Below are positions 39,552-49,640 of a stretch of DNA of 64,000 nt, one piece after another. A model generated the notes under the pieces. The model ran no database searches and was not told the origin of the DNA. It saw only the letters and a program-made list of their open reading frames with translations. Position numbers and translations under genes: made by a program. This stretch comes from Candidatus Hydrogenedentota bacterium (lineage in GTDB: Bacteria; Hydrogenedentota; Hydrogenedentia; Hydrogenedentales; SLHB01), in contig CAVUWV010000036.1 in NCBI GenBank assembly GCA_963745075.1, positions 64,001 through 128,000 on the forward strand, given 5' to 3'. Position 1 is the first letter of the stretch. Every line of letters starts with the position of its first letter.

Positions 39552-39573
39552 ACCGGATTGTCAGCAACCCGGT
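39552..39573 (-). terminator. Hairpin immediately downstream of the peptide pair
   Basis: accggattg-tcag-caacccggt stem-loop; no clear U tract. Confidence 0.35.
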
Positions 39574-39582
39574 GGATGGTGC

Positions 39583-39738
39583 CTATTGCTGATCGCCGAG
39601 CTTGGTAATCACGACGTCACACTTTTTGCCGTCTTCGCTCGTGTCCTGATTGCAGTTGATGGTGATTTTGACGCCATTGGTTTGAACGGCGTATCCGGGC
39701 AACATTTTGGCCTTCGAATGCGAACCGATATGTTTCAT
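39583..39738 (-). CDS. Small peptide B, 51 aa (MKHIGSHSKAKMLPGYAVQTNGVKITINCNQDTSEDGKKCDVVITKLGDQQ)
   Basis: GGAGG RBS (ggaggtcggagtgttATG); leader and Cys motif shared with peptide A. Confidence 0.7.
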   Translation of the reverse strand: MKHIGSHSKAKMLPGYAVQTNGVKITINCNQDTSEDGKKCDVVITKLGDQQ

Positions 39739-39839
39739 AACACTCCGACCTCCGCACTCCCGAGCGGAAAAATCCGTCCACCCGGGCAGATCTTCCGCTT
39801 CCTCGTAATTGTAATCGATCAACGCGTGCTCAAATCGCC

Positions 39840-39998
39840 CTAATACACCACCCCACCTTTGTACGCCTTGCATTCGCACTTCTTCCGTTCCAACCCCGTG
39901 AGGCCCGCACACGGGTCCACAATACCGGGCCCCTTCGTTTCGGCGAGAACAGGCAGCTTCTTCAGGCTCGAATTGATCTTCAGATGCTTCATCTTCAT
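39840..39998 (-). CDS. Small peptide A, 52 aa (MKMKHLKINSSLKKLPVLAETKGPGIVDPCAGLTGLERKKCECKAYKGGVVY)
   Basis: GGAGG RBS (ggaggcgtagtgtcATG); absent from the ORF track; motifs shared with peptide B. Confidence 0.7.
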   Translation of the reverse strand: MKMKHLKINSSLKKLPVLAETKGPGIVDPCAGLTGLERKKCECKAYKGGVVY

Positions 39999-40144
39999 GA
40001 CACTACGCCTCCACCTTGAAATGCAAATCGCCAGACTCGGTCACCGGTAAGCAGCCTGGTCCCTTCACACAGATTACAACTGAGTTCACGAAGCGTTTCC
40101 CGCAAGGACCATTGCGACGCCGGGTTGTTCGGACCAAGCGCGTC

Positions 40145-40900
40145 CTACATCTTCATCTTCTTGAACTGCCAATCCGGGACATGACGGATGATGAGCATGA
40201 TGTACCGCCAAAACCACGGTACGTAGACGGTATTCTTGCGCTTGACGATGGCTGCGCACATGGCCTTGGCGGCCTGTTGCGGCGAGGCAACGAGGAACAG
40301 TCCCGGCAGGCCGAAGGTCATTTTCGTGTCTACGAAGCCGGGCTTGATCGTCGTCACGTGAACGCCCCGGTGATAGAGCCGGTTCCGCAAGCCTTCCAGA
40401 TACGCGCTCAAGCCCGCTTTGGATGCGCCGTAGATGTAATTGCTCTGACGCCCCCGATCGCCGGCCACGGAAGATATTGCCGCGATGAAGCCCGACCCCC
40501 GTTCTTCAAAATACGCCGCAAACTTTTCCAGCAAGGACACGGCGGACGTCAGGTTCACGTCAATCGTTCGCCGCGCGATATCGAATGCGGCCTGGGCATG
40601 CTCCTGCTCGTCCATAAAACCGTAACACAACACGACGCCGCCCAGTCCGCCATTGCCGGCCTCCACACACTGCGCGACGAAACCCTCGTGCGATTCAAAA
40701 TCCTCCGCTTCCAGGAGCAGCGGGATCGCATCCACCCCGCACCGCGTCCGGATATCCGCCGCGATGGTCTCCGCTTCTTCCTCATCGCGCGCGGCGAGCA
40801 CCACCGTGTTTCCCGCCCCGGCAAACTCATCCGCGAGCGCCCGGGCCATGGCCGACGTGGCGCCAAGCACAGCAATGGTTTCCTGCGCAGGCTCGCTCAT
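40145..40900 (-). CDS. DprE2-like SDR (polyprenyl-phospho-2-keto-pentose reductase)
   Basis: LGATSAMA, SSVAGDRGRQSNYIYGASK and KPGFVDTKMT; coupled to a DprE1-like gene. Confidence 0.85.
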   Translation of the reverse strand: MSEPAQETIAVLGATSAMARALADEFAGAGNTVVLAARDEEEAETIAADIRTRCGVDAIPLLLEAEDFESHEGFVAQCVEAGNGGLGGVVLCYGFMDEQEHAQAAFDIARRTIDVNLTSAVSLLEKFAAYFEERGSGFIAAISSVAGDRGRQSNYIYGASKAGLSAYLEGLRNRLYHRGVHVTTIKPGFVDTKMTFGLPGLFLVASPQQAAKAMCAAIVKRKNTVYVPWFWRYIMLIIRHVPDWQFKKMKM

Positions 40901-42309
40901 GATTCTTCATCCTTCGCCAAGTGCAGCCGCCGCGCCATGCGCGAGGACAAGATCCCCTGCGGATCCAGTCTGTGCCGCTCCTTCCGGAATTCTCCCACGC
41001 GCGGATACATGGCCGCGAATGCCTCCGCGTTCATGCACATATCCTTGGCAAGATACAGACGCCCTCCGTACTCGAGCACGAGCCGGTCGCACTCCGCCAG
41101 GAAGGCCAGCAACCCTTCCCGAATCGGAATGTCCAGCGTCAGCGTGTACCCTTCAAAGGGATACGACAAGAGCCCCGGCCCTTGCGGTCCGAATCGCTTC
41201 AGCACGGCCAGGAACGACGCGCACGAGGCCGCGCTGAGCCGTTCCAGCAAGTTGATTAGACCCTCCTCCCGGCCCGTGGGAAACGTCGCCTGATACTGCG
41301 TGAATCCGCGCTTCCCGTAAATGCGGTTCCAGTTGTGGACCGCGTCGAGCGGGTAGAAGTACGAGTCGTAATCGATGATTTTTCCGTCCGACGACGGATG
41401 GGCCGCGTAAAAAAACGCGTTGAACGTCTTGATGCTCAACGGATTCAACACGATCCCCGGAAAATCGAAAGGAACCCCGGGCTTCTTGCGGGCGCGCGCA
41501 CCAAACGGGTCGTTAGTAACGGCCGGCAGTGCATCCGCCGCCGCGTGTTCGCCGAGCATCAGAACCGAACGCCCAAGGCTCTTGCCTTTCGCCAGACAAT
41601 CCACCCACGCCACCGAATACTGGTAGTCCGCATCCGTCTCGCGGATCGTATCCAGCGTCTCATGGATGTTTTTCAGACGCCGGTAATCGACCTTCATATA
41701 CGCACTCTCGACGCGTTGCAGCCGCACCTTCGCCGTGAGAATCACTCCTGTCAACCCGATACCGCCCACGGTGGCCCAAAACACCCCCGGTTCCACATCG
41801 GCCGAACACACGATTCGTTGTCCAGTCGGCGTCAAGAGCGTCAGCTCGAGGACGTGCGCGCTGAACGTACCGTCGCGATGGTGATTCTTCCCATGCACGT
41901 CGTTGGCGATCGCACCGCCCACCGTGACGTACTTCGTGCCCGGAGTCACCGGTAGAAACCACCCCCGCGGGAGGAATACTTCGAGGATTTCCGCGAGACT
42001 GACGCCCCCTTCGCACTCCAGAACGCCGGCGTCATCGGCAAAGGCCAACATCCGGTTCAACCGGACCGTCGAGAGCACACCGCCCCCGCCGTTTACCGCC
42101 GTATCGCCGTAGCTGCGGCCCAACCCCCGCGCGATGTAGTGCGGTTGTTGGTCCGACTCCAGGATTTCGGCGACCGTCCGGCGCTTTTCCGGCCGGAACA
42201 CGGCGCATTTCTCCGCCGGATATCGGCCCCAACCGGATAGGTTTTGTGTCGACGACGGAATCAATGCATACCCCACATTTCGCGAAACGGATCGAATTAT
42301 AGAACCCAC
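40897..42309 (-). CDS. DprE1-like FAD-binding oxidoreductase (polyprenyl-phosphoribose 2'-oxidase)
   Basis: RGLGRSYGD, PVTPGTKYVTVGGAIANDVHGKNHH, YSVAWVD and GGRLYLAKD; start uncertain. Confidence 0.88.
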   Translation of the reverse strand: MGSIIRSVSRNVGYALIPSSTQNLSGWGRYPAEKCAVFRPEKRRTVAEILESDQQPHYIARGLGRSYGDTAVNGGGGVLSTVRLNRMLAFADDAGVLECEGGVSLAEILEVFLPRGWFLPVTPGTKYVTVGGAIANDVHGKNHHRDGTFSAHVLELTLLTPTGQRIVCSADVEPGVFWATVGGIGLTGVILTAKVRLQRVESAYMKVDYRRLKNIHETLDTIRETDADYQYSVAWVDCLAKGKSLGRSVLMLGEHAAADALPAVTNDPFGARARKKPGVPFDFPGIVLNPLSIKTFNAFFYAAHPSSDGKIIDYDSYFYPLDAVHNWNRIYGKRGFTQYQATFPTGREEGLINLLERLSAASCASFLAVLKRFGPQGPGLLSYPFEGYTLTLDIPIREGLLAFLAECDRLVLEYGGRLYLAKDMCMNAEAFAAMYPRVGEFRKERHRLDPQGILSSRMARRLHLAKDEES

Positions 42310-44096: not shown

Positions 44097-45605
44097 TCAC
44101 GTCGCCGCCCTTGCGGCCGCCGTGGGCGGACGCAACGGGCGTTGCGCCGCCGGTTCGGCCTGCGCTGCCGCCTGTGTGCGCCTTTCCTGAATGTAGTTTT
44201 CGATGGCGATCGTGCGGCTGATATTCGCCAACGCGATGATGAACCAGTAGGGCTCCATGATGCGCACGATGAGAAACGAGATCGTGCCCAGGGAGTGGAC
44301 GATAAGCGCAAGGGTCGTCACGAACGCGCCCAGCGACACGCCGCGCGCGACCCAGTCCGTCGACCAGAGATACCCCTCCCGCGTCGTTTTGAGCAGGCGC
44401 ATCTGTAGAAAGACGAACGCGATAAATCCGATAATCCCGCTTTCGATCAGGACCCGGGCATACTGACTGTCGAGGACCCGGTCCCACGACACACCACCCC
44501 CGAACCACGGCCAAATCCGGAGATTGTACCGCACCTTCTGCCATACGTAGAGCCGTTCGTGCGTCGACTTATCCACCTGCAGCCCGGTGTCATATTCCCC
44601 GATGGCCACCTCCTGGCCGCTGCCTCGTTGAAACGTGTAGTTGACTCGATCCTTCACGTCATCCGGCATGATAAAGGGCGAGGCGATCAGCACCACCATC
44701 ACCGCCACGATGATGGATGGCTTTCGCGACGCAAGTCCCAATACCACCAACCCCGCGATAAACGCGATATACGACGCACGCGACAAGGTGAACAGGAACG
44801 GGAAGAACGCGACCAGAGCGAGACACAGCATCCCCCGCCGCAGCCCTTTGGTCGGCGCTTGGGTATACAGCGCCGCTGCGATGCACATCACCATCACCAG
44901 GTAGCCGCCCAGTGTGTTCGGCTCGGTCCCGCCCTTCTCAAAGGGCGTGCTGACGCGTTCCATCCCGCTGACGAATCGCGTGTAAAGCCCAAACAACGAC
45001 ACGATCATCGCCACGACAAAGAACACGCCTAGCTGTTGCCGCATCTGTTTCACATTCCGAATCGAATTACCCACAAGCACGAAGATCATGTAGAACTCGG
45101 CCATCTTGAGCATCGTAAACAGCGCTTCCTTCTTGTCGAAAAGCGGAATGGAAGCTCGATAGGCCAGCATGGTCGAAAACAAACAGACTCCGTAATAGGC
45201 GGTGATTCCCGGATTGATCGGACTGGGCAGCCAGAGCGATTTGCGCCCTTCAAAGGCAAGTTTTACCAGCGCACCGACAAAGACTACGATAATCAGACCG
45301 TCGTTGTACCGCAGGTTGAGCATGCGATTGCCCATGCCCACCTTGCCCGCTTCGATTTCGGGCGACAGAAGCATGGCCACGATCAGGAAAAAGACCCCCA
45401 GCTCCACCCGCAGGATCGTCAAACCGAAGATCAGCAGGCTCACACCAACGGCGATCGTGATCGTCAGGTTCTGGAAAACACTGTGAAGGACCAGCAGCCC
45501 GATGGCCGACAACAGCATGAACCCGACAAAGAACGGAAACTCGACGCTACTTTCCGCAATTTCACCGCGGCCGACACCGTACTGGGAACGCTGAAACAGG
45601 GCCAC
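44097..45605 (-). CDS. O-antigen ligase / Wzy-like polymerase
   Basis: About 12 TM helices; EPNTLGGYL, TLSRAS, R..W...PWFG.G and DSQY...E.GI.G; GTG start re-called after the repeat element. Confidence 0.8.
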   Translation of the reverse strand: MALFQRSQYGVGRGEIAESSVEFPFFVGFMLLSAIGLLVLHSVFQNLTITIAVGVSLLIFGLTILRVELGVFFLIVAMLLSPEIEAGKVGMGNRMLNLRYNDGLIIVVFVGALVKLAFEGRKSLWLPSPINPGITAYYGVCLFSTMLAYRASIPLFDKKEALFTMLKMAEFYMIFVLVGNSIRNVKQMRQQLGVFFVVAMIVSLFGLYTRFVSGMERVSTPFEKGGTEPNTLGGYLVMVMCIAAALYTQAPTKGLRRGMLCLALVAFFPFLFTLSRASYIAFIAGLVVLGLASRKPSIIVAVMVVLIASPFIMPDDVKDRVNYTFQRGSGQEVAIGEYDTGLQVDKSTHERLYVWQKVRYNLRIWPWFGGGVSWDRVLDSQYARVLIESGIIGFIAFVFLQMRLLKTTREGYLWSTDWVARGVSLGAFVTTLALIVHSLGTISFLIVRIMEPYWFIIALANISRTIAIENYIQERRTQAAAQAEPAAQRPLRPPTAAARAAT

Positions 45606-45627
45606 CGTTAGGGTCTCCGATAGGAAC

Positions 45628-45804
45628 AAATCCGAAATCCAGAATCCAAAATCCAAAACAATTTCAAATGTTCAAATTTCCGAATTGCGAAAACATCCGT
45701 CGCGGTGACGGTTCCGTCACGGTGCAGAACCCAACTGGTCTTGGTCATTCTAGTTTCGGTCATTTGATTTTGTTTCGGATTTCAAGACTCGATATTCGAG
45801 CTTT
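45628..45804. repeat. Second heptamer-based imperfect inverted repeat, related to 5201-5368
   Basis: aaatccgaaatccagaatccaaaatccaaaacaatttcaaatg versus catttgattttgtttcggatttc. Confidence 0.75.
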
Positions 45805-45873
45805 GTGGCCGTTTCCCGTGATGGTGTCGTCACCCGTCATAGGCGAGCGAGACGGACATCAACCCCGGTTCAT

Positions 45874-48117
45874 TCAAAAATAATACCACCGCTTGGGTTT
45901 TTCCGATGCGGAATCGTCGTAGTAGTAATAGTAGTAGTAATAATGGCGCCGCGTGGCCTTCAGATTGTTCAGCACCACCCCGGCGATATTGGCCCGCGCC
46001 GTCTCCAACAGCTTCTTGCCCCGGATAACCGTCTCGCGCCGCGCGTGGTCGGCCGACACCACATGGACGACCGTATCCACTTCCGTCGCCAACAGCACCG
46101 GATCGGTCACGACCAACATAGACGGCGCGTCGCAAATCACCAGATCGAATTCACTGCCCAATTGTTCCAGCAGCTTCCGCATGCGATCGGACCCGATCAG
46201 TTCCGACGGGTTGGGCGGGACCCGCCCGCTGGAAATAATCCACAGGTTCTCGACCCGGGTCGGCCGAATGACCGTGTGCACGTCGTATCCTTCACGGAGC
46301 ACGTCCGCCAGCCCCGGCCCGCGTTCCATCCGCAAGACGTGGTGCACGTGAGGGCGCCGCAGGTCCGTATCGATGACGAGCACGCGCAACCCGCTGTCCG
46401 CAAACGTGACGGCCATGTTCACCGCCGTTGTCGTCTTGCCTTCCGCGGGCACGGAACTGGTCACCATGATCGTCTTGGGCTTCTCGTGGATCGTCGCCAA
46501 TTGGAACGTCGTACGCAAGGTCCGGTACGCTTCCGAAATCGGCGATTTCGGATCGTGCTGCGTTACAATGCAGGCATCCACCTGCCCTTCGTCGCTCATC
46601 ACCACGTAATCCCCGCCGCGGCGGACCTTCTGCTTTCCGAACCGCATCTGAGGGATCGTGCCGATCACGTCCAGCCCGATGTACTCCGTCACGTCTTCAA
46701 TCGACCGGATGGACGTGTCGTTCATTTCCGCCATCACGGCCAACCCGAACCCGATCACCAGCCCCACAAACGCACCGATGATGAAGTTCATCCACGGCTT
46801 GACCTGCTGCTCGACCGGCACTGCGCTGGCCGTCGCCACGCTTTGCCGCTCCACGTAGCCCTGCTCCCGGTTCAATCCCGTTGCGATCTCGAGCCGCTTG
46901 TCGAGCAGGGTGTTGAATTGACGCCGCAACTGATCGGCCTCGCGAACTAGGTTCTGGTATTCCTTGTCTTTGTCCGACAACGACGGAATGATCTGCTCCA
47001 GTTCCTTGATCAGGCGACGGTTGGTGGAACTCTGAATGTCGAGCGACGTGAGCTGCAGTTGCAGCGAGAGGTATTGATTCCGTAATTGCTTCCGATCCTG
47101 CAAAAGGTTCATGCCGGACGTCACCCCTTCGTCCACCTCCTGCATGGCCTGCAAAATCGCCTGCTCCTTCTCTTCGATACGGGCCTGGAGATCGCGCAAC
47201 GGACCCTGGTGCGGCTGCCATATCACCGAAAGCTGAATTCGCTGCCGTTGCAGTTCGTTCAGTTCCCCAAGCAGTCCCGTCACCACGTCGTCGGAAATCT
47301 GCCCAATGGACAGCGGAAGCTGTTCGTTCTTCGCGGCGAGCTGATCCTCGATGCCGCCCATCTTAGCCCGGATTTCTTCCTGCTGCGTTTCGGCGTTTGT
47401 CACTTCGCGGGCGAGCGACTGGATCTCGTTGACTACCTCGTCCTTCGTCCGGAACCCCATGCTCTTCCGGAACTCCCACAGCTTGCCGTCCGCCTCGTCG
47501 AGATCCTGGCGAACGTCGTCCAACTTTTGCAGCACGAAGCTGTGCGTCTCTTCCTCTTCTTCCAGCAGAAATTCCCGGTTCCGATCGATAAACACCCGCG
47601 CGCCAAATTCCGCGATCCGCTTGGCCTCCGCCTGGCTCGAAGCCGTCGTCGTGATCTGTATCATGCCCGCTTCCTGATTGGGCTCGATGCGCACGCGGCT
47701 CTCGATCTCCGCGACCTTCGCCAGAAACTCCTCTTCCGTCGAAACTCCGCCGCTCGGCAGACCGTCCGCGATCCCCTGCTGGATGAGTGCGCGGGTGAGA
47801 TCCTCGGCCACACCGTGACGGCTGACCCGCTCCACCAACGCCTGCGGCGTGTTCAGGAAAAGCGGTTTGGCCCCCACGTCTTTGAGCAGGCTTTTCTCCC
47901 AGGGAGACTGTTCCACCCGCAGTTGCGCCGATCCGACGAACTGGGGCTTCACATCGAAACTGAACAGACCGAAGATTCCGTACCCCACCGATGCCACCAA
48001 GGTGAACACGGCGATGAGACGCCACCGGCGCAGCCCCACGTTCAGGATATAGCGGAACTGGTTCTCGCGGGGCGCCTGGCCGGCCGCCTGCTCGAGGCCT
48101 GCAGTTTCCATTGCCAT
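45874..48117 (-). CDS. wzc: Wzc-type polysaccharide co-polymerase / BY tyrosine kinase
   Basis: Two TM helices flank a coiled-coil periplasmic domain; SEAYRTLRT, Walker A SSVPAEGKTT, IDTDLRRP, DAP and a C-terminal run of 8 Tyr. Confidence 0.93.
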   Translation of the reverse strand: MAMETAGLEQAAGQAPRENQFRYILNVGLRRWRLIAVFTLVASVGYGIFGLFSFDVKPQFVGSAQLRVEQSPWEKSLLKDVGAKPLFLNTPQALVERVSRHGVAEDLTRALIQQGIADGLPSGGVSTEEEFLAKVAEIESRVRIEPNQEAGMIQITTTASSQAEAKRIAEFGARVFIDRNREFLLEEEEETHSFVLQKLDDVRQDLDEADGKLWEFRKSMGFRTKDEVVNEIQSLAREVTNAETQQEEIRAKMGGIEDQLAAKNEQLPLSIGQISDDVVTGLLGELNELQRQRIQLSVIWQPHQGPLRDLQARIEEKEQAILQAMQEVDEGVTSGMNLLQDRKQLRNQYLSLQLQLTSLDIQSSTNRRLIKELEQIIPSLSDKDKEYQNLVREADQLRRQFNTLLDKRLEIATGLNREQGYVERQSVATASAVPVEQQVKPWMNFIIGAFVGLVIGFGLAVMAEMNDTSIRSIEDVTEYIGLDVIGTIPQMRFGKQKVRRGGDYVVMSDEGQVDACIVTQHDPKSPISEAYRTLRTTFQLATIHEKPKTIMVTSSVPAEGKTTTAVNMAVTFADSGLRVLVIDTDLRRPHVHHVLRMERGPGLADVLREGYDVHTVIRPTRVENLWIISSGRVPPNPSELIGSDRMRKLLEQLGSEFDLVICDAPSMLVVTDPVLLATEVDTVVHVVSADHARRETVIRGKKLLETARANIAGVVLNNLKATRRHYYYYYYYYDDSASEKPKRWYYF

Positions 48118-48122
48118 CCGAG

Positions 48123-49640
48123 TCAGTTTCTCCGGGATTCCGTCACGTCTTGCGGTTGTCGTATCGCGGGACCCACAATCTTCGAATTCGCCGTCACGTC
48201 CAGCATCCGATCCCACGTCACCGTCTCCGGGGACTCATGGACCGTCGGCGTCAGAAACATCATCAGCTCCGTCTGGGCATGCGACTTCTCCGTGTGCTTG
48301 AACAGATTGCCCAACAGCGGAACCTTACCCAACCCGGGCACCCGCTGCTCCACGTCCTGCAGATCGTTGCGGTAAATACCGCCCACGACCAGGGTCTGTC
48401 CGTCGCGCACGTTGGATTCGCCCTGGTATTTCCGTACGGATCGAATCGGAATTCCATTGCTGGACCCGGTGGGGGAAGAAACCTCCGGCTCGAACTCCAG
48501 TTTCACATAGGTCCCTTTGTCATCCTTGAGCACATGCGGCGTCACGGCCATCTTGATTCCCAAATCGAGAAAACGCACGGAGAAATTCTCCCGGCCCGAC
48601 GCCTCGATACCGAATTCCGTGTACGGAAATTCATCCACCATCGAAATCTCGGCCTTCTTATGGTTCACCGTGAGAATGTTCGGATTGGCCAGCAATTCAG
48701 CTTGGTTGTCCGCGACCAAGGCATCCAACAGCATCCCGAGATCGACTTGCTGGTTCATGAGCCCGAAAAACATCTGTCCCACTTTCGGGATTTGCGCGGG
48801 CACATTGAGCAGACGGTCAAAGGTCGTTCCGTCCACAAAGCTTCGCCCCCTGTCGTTGTTTTGGTTTCCGTTTCCATTTATCCCGCCAAAATTTTCGTTG
48901 TTCAGAGGGGATGCCGACTGTCCCTTCAAGGCGTTGATATTTGTGTCCTGGCTTGGCAATGGGTAATAGCCCCCGTTCACATCCGTTCCTTGGACGAACC
49001 AGCGAACGCCCAACTCTTTCATCGCGCCGGCCTTCACCTCTGCGATCTTCGCTTCGATGCGCACCTGCGTGAGTTGGCTCTGCATCTTGTCCAGTCGCGC
49101 CGTCACATTGAGAATGTTCTGAATCGCGTCCGGCGTATCCGTTATGATTAGACTGTTCGTATCCGGATCGTACGCAATACTACCGCCCGCGGACGTCATC
49201 CCCTGTAACGCCACGCTGAGCGTTTCCGCGTCCGCATTATTCAGCGGGAGAATCTCCGTCTTCATGTCCGGCATCCGGTAACCGCCGCCAATCTCCGGCG
49301 CCGTTCGCGACACGGTCACGCGCGGATTCTTCAACACCGACGAAAGGGCCGTGCGTATCCGCGCCGAGGCTTCGTTCTCCGACAAACCGGCGATGGTAAC
49401 GTTTCCGATGAACGGAAGCTGAATGTTTCCGTCGCTGTCGATTTGCGTCGTCGTCGACACTTCCGGCCGCCGGTAAACGTCGACGAAGACCAGTTCGCCG
49501 GGCTCCAAGACGCCCTTGGGCGCTGGAACGTCCTGTGTCGCCGCCGGCAATGCAGCCAGCACCGCCACCAGCCACACGATCCATTGTGGACCGGACCGGT
49601 CACGCAGTTGCGGTTCGCGTTCTCTCAGATGACGTATCAC
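48123..49640 (-). CDS. Fusion of a Wza-type Poly_export domain with Secretin_N and secretin domains
   Basis: LEPGELVFVDVY...DSDGNIQLPFIGNVTIAGLS..EA...I..L...LKNPRVTV; then ILPLNNADAE...YDPDTNSLIITDT; then QVRIEAKIAEV...ANPNILTVN...VRDGQTLVVGG...VPGLGKVPLLGNLF...TELMMFLTP. GTGA overlap with the upstream gene. Confidence 0.88.
   Translation of the reverse strand: MIRHLREREPQLRDRSGPQWIVWLVAVLAALPAATQDVPAPKGVLEPGELVFVDVYRRPEVSTTTQIDSDGNIQLPFIGNVTIAGLSENEASARIRTALSSVLKNPRVTVSRTAPEIGGGYRMPDMKTEILPLNNADAETLSVALQGMTSAGGSIAYDPDTNSLIITDTPDAIQNILNVTARLDKMQSQLTQVRIEAKIAEVKAGAMKELGVRWFVQGTDVNGGYYPLPSQDTNINALKGQSASPLNNENFGGINGNGNQNNDRGRSFVDGTTFDRLLNVPAQIPKVGQMFFGLMNQQVDLGMLLDALVADNQAELLANPNILTVNHKKAEISMVDEFPYTEFGIEASGRENFSVRFLDLGIKMAVTPHVLKDDKGTYVKLEFEPEVSSPTGSSNGIPIRSVRKYQGESNVRDGQTLVVGGIYRNDLQDVEQRVPGLGKVPLLGNLFKHTEKSHAQTELMMFLTPTVHESPETVTWDRMLDVTANSKIVGPAIRQPQDVTESRRN

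Follow-up and report, generated by a model that had tools for sequence, protein, structure and literature searches.

The window, a stretch of 64,000 nucleotides from a Candidatus Hydrogenedentota genome (here G000), contains two tandem short open reading frames (sORFs) on the minus strand between positions 39583 and 39998, where an initial annotation of the sequence had placed them. ORF1 (39840..39998) is predicted to encode a precursor peptide of 52 amino acids (aa), and ORF2 (39583..39738) is predicted to encode one of 51 aa. Each start codon is preceded on the same strand by a GGAGG ribosome-binding site (RBS) read from the sequence, as that annotation had noted, with a distance of 9 nt to the ATG for ORF1 (40008..40012) and 10 nt for ORF2 (39749..39753). 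The ORF1 peptide begins with MKMKHL, and its leader (residues 1 to 19; 39942..39998, minus strand) ends in L-P-V-L-A, whereas the ORF2 leader (residues 1 to 17; 39688..39738, minus strand) ends in L-P-G-Y-A; cleavage is predicted after Ala19 and Ala17, respectively. The MKH-x9-LP-x2-A leaders and C-x8-KK-C cores were found as described. In ORF1, the C-x8-KK-C segment (39876..39911, minus strand) runs from Cys30 to Cys41 and probably forms a disulfide loop with a candidate acceptor in Lys39-Lys40; ORF1 also has a strongly conserved C-terminal tail and a third, variable Cys. The corresponding segment of ORF2 (39619..39654, minus strand; sequence and homolog alignment) includes Cys29, Cys40, and Lys38-Lys39.

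Among 2,271 sORFs in the genome with an ATG start, an RBS, and a length of 40 to 65 aa, the C-x8-KK-C motif was confined to ORF1 and ORF2, more sharing than chance would give. Coding hexamer scores were positive for both ORFs (13.1 and 16.7), and the in-frame extension upstream of ORF2 carried no coding signal (hexamer score, -1.1). The hairpin reported 3' of ORF2 exists (39552..39573, minus strand; 9 bp; role putative), yet it lacks a U-tract, is absent from the terminator calls, and is of ordinary stability (z = -0.30). A hydrophobic h-region was absent from both leaders as read from the sequence, which agrees with the statement that they are not Sec signals.

Neither ORF had a match in Pfam or NCBIfam, and no family was found for them in the ESM Atlas, in which the best score (0.81) is at most a lead. 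A PDB search with an alignment of peptides of this type returned neither CteA nor any other relative, and an AlphaFold model of ORF1 alone was of low confidence (pLDDT, 62.8), with only a low-confidence helix at residues 36 to 47. The neighbors of the two genes are an FAD oxidoreductase/SDR pair on one side and an Na/Ca exchanger on the other, and no maturase gene adjoins them. The FAD-linked oxidoreductase and SDR genes (40145-42309), which we take to resemble DprE1/DprE2, are upstream of the peptides and are adjoined by capsule-type genes at 44097-48216.

Conservation of the two-cysteine peptides

A profile of 11 homologs of ORF1 and ORF2, searched against 135 genomes of the phylum (E ≤ 0.01), produced matches in 13 genomes, with up to 10 matches per genome. 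The matched genomes were G000, all five of its genus, three of five in genus g11, three of eight in genus g4, and G050, in which the match was weak and partial; the peptide genera are g1, g11, and g4. A protein search yielded 25 homologs among 100 candidates, and the four with a source name were hypothetical proteins of Hydrogenedentota. At the syntenic locus, G003, G004, and G005 have four tandem copies, and in G001 and G002 an ORF1 homolog was found at another place. A conserved secreted protein of about 230 to 245 aa, with no Pfam match, is encoded divergently in front of the peptide array in G003 to G005 (L021:2621-3313, L022:4704-5438, and L024:2615-3307) and is absent at the corresponding place in the window.

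Coding conservation, a check proposed with the initial annotation, was evident as dN below dS in the homologs. Over about 50 codons, dN/dS was 0.30/1.62 for ORF1 versus G002 and 0.11/0.44 for the ORF2 orthologs of G005 versus G003; between ORF2 of the window and these two orthologs, dN was 0.52 to 0.57 and dS was 0.81 to 1.16. The RBS is kept in the homologs, and ORF2 is frameshifted in G004. ORF1 and ORF2 are genuine genes.

In an alignment of 36 collected sequences, which include kin and near-duplicates, 35 contained C-x10-C. All 35 of these homologs have a Lys within two residues before the second Cys (KK in 27), and none has Arg there. The P-x-x-A leader end was present in 31 of the 35 and an MKH-like start in 30, and leader position 7 was mostly Lys or Gln. 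The conserved leader and variable core proposed initially hold for the comparison between paralogs and fail among ORF1 orthologs, in which conservation is higher in the core than in the leader: the C-terminal tail is almost invariant and the leader drifts strongly, a pattern that counts against the reading favored below.

A leader family dispersed over the genome

All possible starts in G000 were scanned, and 26 short ORFs with related leaders were picked by hand from these scans, a genome-wide search for copies of the kind suggested earlier. These ORFs (32 to 73 aa) are at 14 loci, have unrelated cores, and share a leader of the form M-[KR]-[HR]-[IVL]-x-x-x-[ST] ... P-x-x-A. The neighbors in the 14 regions were unrelated, and a maturase was found only on contig C20, where two such precursors head an operon; copies beside SPASM, peptidase, and ABC exporter genes, which the annotation had proposed to look for, are present there. 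An asparagine-synthetase-like gene beside one precursor was judged incidental. An alignment of 33 leaders had no relative in the PDB and nothing in NCBIfam, and no upstream motif shared among 21 precursor genes survived multiple testing; the latter result does not favor a common pathway of the kind proposed below.

On a leader profile of eight positions (2 to 9), whose training set was 55 operon-linked peptides (19 loci in other genomes) chosen with a profile that included the window peptides, ORF1 (scored from Met3) ranked 19th and ORF2 ranked 34th among 411,826 possible starts. Three observations weigh against operon membership of the two: their scores (13.2 and 10.6) are both below the lowest training score (13.7); position 7, hydrophobic in 55 of 55 operon peptides, is polar in the window leaders (Asn and His); and the window cores are polar two-Cys loops without the hydrophobic helix of the operon peptides. 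Two-Cys cores are also present within operon arrays (5 of 55), and the leader end P-x-x-A or A-x-A is found in both window ORFs and in 50 of the 55 operon peptides. Of 63 sORFs located upstream of GNAT1 and led by an RBS, 50 fitted the leader regular expression in a count made without any profile, and 9 more were visible variants. About two dozen other short genes, among them the two that head the operon, share a predicted leader type with ORF1 and ORF2.

Other short genes in G000 were also observed. Genes for M4 (thermolysin-like) proteases on contigs C9 and C18 (L029:6899-10204 and L030:7494-9914) each precede an array of two-Cys peptides that have a variant of the family leader. The peptides of such an array had positive leader-profile scores, keep a Lys, and did not match the window subfamily profile; the C18 array includes at least one further peptide upstream of 193492, seen by its tail only. 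A 51-aa RBS-led ORF at G000:C10:373502 (plus strand) scores 10.7 on the leader profile and contains a twice-repeated TTLA(V/L)GEE; it resembles a graspetide-type or other repeat precursor and looks like a different family.

A candidate maturation and export operon

The operon on C20 (G000:C20:133684-140571), outside the window and in single copy, is a candidate for maturation and export. It comprises two precursor genes, GNAT1-GNAT2-GNAT3, a CPBP/Rce1 intramembrane protease, an ABC ATPase, an ABC-2 permease, and a 640-aa CteB-like protein; no LanM was found within it. The initial proposal of precursor-type peptides with machinery acting in trans is supported by the RRE-type leader and by this operon elsewhere in the genome. 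Gene order is conserved in relatives, with one to five precursors in front (none in the stretch read at L078 and L130). Among the 35 operon loci collected, 28 were labeled Hydrogenedentota, -ales, or -es, and 7 had another label or none. At several loci the operon is directly downstream of glutamate synthase genes (L033:9868-15897), which suggests an old, stable chromosomal position, and at L073 and L078 the CPBP protease and the ABC ATPase appear to be encoded in one ORF of 650 to 687 aa, consistent with coupled cleavage and export.

The CPBP motifs (EExxxR, the His motif, and HxxxD/N) are kept in 24 sequences. The GNATs are of the SpeG/RimL type (PF13302/PF13420), with SpeG, RimL, and YdaF among the closest structures. 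All four GNAT domains of the operon have a CoA-binding motif that is degenerate relative to SpeG/RimL, whose motifs are assigned their generally known roles; acyl-CoA chemistry is therefore not assured, which counts against the favored reading.

The CteB-like maturase was detected in 123 of 135 phylum genomes and in 83 of 86 genomes of good quality. A DNA pattern combining RBS and leader was present in 126 of the 135 genomes, and a reversed control gave 8 hits in all. The pattern occurred in 122 of the 123 maturase-positive genomes versus 4 of the 12 negatives; among these four, G094 has GNAT3 and precursors, and the hits in G064 and G071 are not family members. G093, the fourth (60% complete), with two true precursors and no operon hit, is a true exception, and G060 has the maturase and no GNAT3 ortholog; both genomes weigh against the favored reading. 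The operon and the leader family co-occur across the phylum, and the leader family vanishes where the operon does. The co-loss amounts to only a few independent events because the genomes are kin, and since the DNA pattern misses the window peptides, this test supports the wider family and not ORF1 and ORF2 directly.

A CteB-like protein without the radical-SAM site

The 640-aa protein (L033:2685-4607; G000:C20:133684-135606) consists of an RRE, a barrel, half a SPASM domain, and a GNAT domain. It matches the models of SCIFF-type maturases below cutoff, and CteB (5WGG) is its best relative in the PDB by sequence (E = 1.5e-20) and its best match in fold (model pLDDT, 80; Foldseek E = 4.6e-18), followed for the C-terminal part by SpeG/RimL GNATs. 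GNAT1 is a paralog of this fused domain (hhalign probability, 97%). None of 29 aligned orthologs contained CxxxCxxC, and of the seven SPASM cysteines, one CxxCx5C...C set is left. In the top 150 representatives, CxxxCxxC was missing from all members with a GNAT fusion, and the next hits were mostly intact enzymes with no GNAT. In an unrooted FastTree tree, the 38 rows of the family formed one side of a branch (support, 100). An RRE profile searched against the 5,256 called genes of G000 matched this protein alone. It is, by its sequence, a radical-SAM maturase without the catalytic site and is predicted to be radical-dead. The name of NCBIfam family TIGR04347, whose model it did not match, indicates apparently radical-dead SPASM proteins and provides a precedent for such pseudo-enzymes.

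Residues 19 to 30 of the RRE, the strand expected to pair with the leader, contain an invariant C-F-C-F-E-C with three Cys in 28 of 28 orthologs covering the region; this stretch is absent from CteB and is possibly a new metal site or acyl relay. Three further CteB-like proteins without CxxxCxxC or a GNAT fusion (P0076, with a long extra C-terminal domain, P0095, and P0137) were outside the Hydrogenedentota branch in the tree and may be additional independent pseudo-maturases.

The core lysine and a proposed pathway

A core Lys was present in 55 of 55 operon-linked peptides, typically right after the hydrophobic helix and in 48 of them as K-[EDN]; Arg made up 1.3% of their core residues. All 26 members in G000 also have a core Lys, which 3 of 5,000 random draws equaled, and their ratio of Lys to Arg was 77:26, compared with 3.6% to 6.6% in the proteome. 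Lys N-acylation is the simplest reading of an operon whose tailoring enzymes are confined to four GNAT domains.

We give an even chance to the reading that ORF1 and ORF2 are remote, atypical precursors of the C20 operon whose Lys is acylated and which are cut at P-x-x-A and exported. By analogy with CteA on CteB, the K-H-[IVL]-x-x-x-[ST] stretch would bind the RRE of the radical-dead protein as a beta-strand, and binding of the leader would bring the core to the GNAT domains, both the fused one and the free ones. Acylation by the GNATs would then fall on a Lys side chain, at Lys39/40 in ORF1 and at Lys38/39 in ORF2, with an acyl donor that is perhaps not acetyl, because the CoA motifs are degenerate. 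The CPBP protease may cut after P-x-x-A, the ABC-2 transporter may export the core, and outside the cell the two Cys of ORF1 and ORF2 could be joined in a disulfide loop. Acylated peptides that act outside the cell or at its surface, as signals specific to the lineage, are the most likely products.

The wider proposal, somewhat short of an even chance, is of a phylum-wide, near-core, and undescribed line in which the radical-dead SPASM protein has the sole role of a scaffold that reads the leader for the GNATs. These would acylate one Lys on a few to more than 20 unrelated cores, which range from hydrophobic helices to disulfide loops, and yield exported lipopeptide signals or envelope peptides encoded at sites scattered over the genome. 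If so, these ribosomal peptides would form a class not yet described, and their reader would show plainly that a radical-SAM maturase can be retained as a scaffold after becoming a pseudo-enzyme; machinery that takes very different cores behind a tag of 15 to 19 residues would also be a useful tool for site-specific peptide acylation. The near-universal, single-copy presence of the operon offers an entry point into the biology of a phylum that has not been cultured. How far this machinery reaches can best be tested with the window peptides, whose cores and leaders are the most divergent from those of the operon itself.

Relation to known peptide systems

The reader protein is homologous to CteB of the SCIFF/ranthipeptide systems (CteA-CteB, PDB 5WGG; TIGR03973 and TIGR03974; PapB, NF047865) over the RRE, barrel, and SPASM, and the first eight leader residues of the Hydrogenedentota family fit SCIFF leaders. 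In CteB, the RRE is described as being bound by the leader in the form of a beta-strand (PMC6231123 and PMC8326336). Two SCIFF precursors, taken from two plasmid-collection records, scored 25.3 and 11.6 on the family leader profile, compared with the 13.2 and 10.6 of the window peptides, and the family tag therefore probably combines the RRE-binding stretch of SCIFF leaders with another cleavage site. Unlike in SCIFF systems, the Hydrogenedentota reader has no CxxxCxxC, a reduced set of SPASM Cys, and a fused GNAT; the leaders end in P-x-x-A or A-x-A instead of Gly-Gly; and the precursors are dispersed, with unrelated cores and no six-Cys core. The six-Cys precursor model TIGR03973 had no match to either ORF in the NCBIfam search and none over cutoff in 61 genomes of the phylum. 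The likeness to SCIFF precursors raised initially is thus real for the start of the leader, and thioether chemistry of the SCIFF type was not supported, given that the only CteB-like protein of the genome lacks CxxxCxxC and that a Cys pair is missing from most of the family. The family is not SCIFF, and no radical chemistry is predicted for it.

In selidamides (KspN, PhaN, and NpuN), a leader-bearing ribosomal peptide receives an acyl group on the side chain of Lys or Orn from a GNAT, and which enzyme acts is set by the leader (PMC8784127 and PMC13647313). They set a precedent for Lys acylation by RiPP GNATs, which in Hydrogenedentota is only predicted. Selidamides have an NHLP or Nif11 leader with Gly-Gly, a PF00583 GNAT, and often LanM or arginase, in contrast to the short SCIFF-like leader, the three to four SpeG/RimL-like GNATs (PF13302/PF13420), the dead radical-SAM scaffold, CPBP, and ABC-2 of Hydrogenedentota. 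An NHLP or Nif11 leader with Gly-Gly is absent from ORF1 and ORF2 (no Pfam match; 17 to 19 aa with a P-x-x-A end), and the pathway GNATs, in the operon and so in trans to both ORFs, are of the PF13302/SpeG-RimL type. The Hydrogenedentota peptides belong to neither SCIFF nor selidamides.

Prochlorosins, in which one maturase, ProcM, serves 29 ProcA precursors with genes scattered over the genome (PMC10783134), are comparable to the 26 precursors listed at 14 loci with one RRE reader in G000. They differ in that neither lanthionine chemistry nor a Nif11 leader is evident in Hydrogenedentota, where the operon is near-universal in the phylum and not patchy. Daptide clusters have several hydrophobic helical cores each, an invariant acceptor residue, an RRE delivering to a separate enzyme, and an intramembrane leader peptidase (a site-2 protease), with the C-terminal Thr modified by a dehydrogenase, an aminotransferase, and a methyltransferase (bioRxiv 10.1101/2023.03.08.531785). 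The proposed Hydrogenedentota pathway has the first four of these traits in common with daptides and differs in having an internal Lys, GNATs, and a CPBP protease. PMC8939145 and PMC9413430 were further sources for the literature comparison. The pathway may be likened to selidamides for Lys acylation, to prochlorosins for dispersed precursors, and to SCIFF for its reader. No published description of the operon was found in the open literature searched; supplements of genome-mining studies could list it. ORF1 and ORF2 are most likely substrates, remote and atypical ones, of an undescribed pathway that acylates and exports peptides throughout the phylum.

Alternative explanations

Descent of ORF1 and ORF2 from the family with use of only the protease and exporter, or of another route, is unlikely but has several points in its favor. 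Their products would then be unmodified disulfide-loop peptides with the Lys as a receptor contact. The RRE-binding half of the leader deviates and drifts while P-x-x-A is kept in most homologs, the nearly invariant tail of the ORF1 core is ligand-like, and no hydrophobic helix is present in the cores. Against unmodified export, the Lys beside the second Cys is never replaced by Arg in the 35 sequences although the neighboring position varies, the MKH-like start is still found in 30 of them, and two-Cys cores occur in the operon arrays as well. Rather unlikely, too, is that the peptides are operon substrates of other chemistry, with GNATs that acylate the new N terminus, transfer an aminoacyl group, or are in part noncatalytic peptide-binding subunits. 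The N-terminal acetyltransferases RimL and YdaF are among the closest structures besides SpeG, the CoA motifs are degenerate, and several RiPP GNATs acylate the N terminus once the leader has been removed (PMC13647313). The residue after the predicted cut, however, is highly variable and the Lys is fixed. Moreover, the best GNAT matches are to SpeG, which acts on alkyl amines, like the Lys side chain.

That the ORFs are sactipeptide or ranthipeptide precursors whose Cys are crosslinked in trans by an active radical-SAM enzyme is very improbable. The leader start and the two conserved Cys would suit such a thioether product, and further SPASM proteins are encoded in G000, including one that has a PqqD domain. 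However, the CteB-like protein is predicted to be radical-dead, an anaerobic sulfatase maturase scored above cutoff among the remaining SPASM hits, and the 61 genomes had no TIGR03973 match over cutoff; the fixed Cys pair also suits a disulfide. In G000 a frameshift interrupts the PqqD-radical SAM gene, which is found in genera g1, g8, and g29, versus g1, g11, and g4 for the peptides. Least credible is that the ORFs are nonfunctional and their motifs due to chance: the want of any Pfam, NCBIfam, or Atlas family and the frameshift in G004 would fit this, but homologs in 13 of 135 genomes, dN below dS, the kept RBS, and the four-copy tandem arrays of G003 to G005 argue against it.

Several alternative readers in G000 were considered for the leaders, namely, the PqqD protein, the PqqD-radical SAM protein, the sulfatase maturase, and a C39-like hit, and these do not fit. 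In the PqqD-radical SAM/SPASM gene (G000:C36:219923-221291; L044), the SPASM domain is in another frame, owing to a frameshift or an assembly error, and relatives of this gene have longer open frames.
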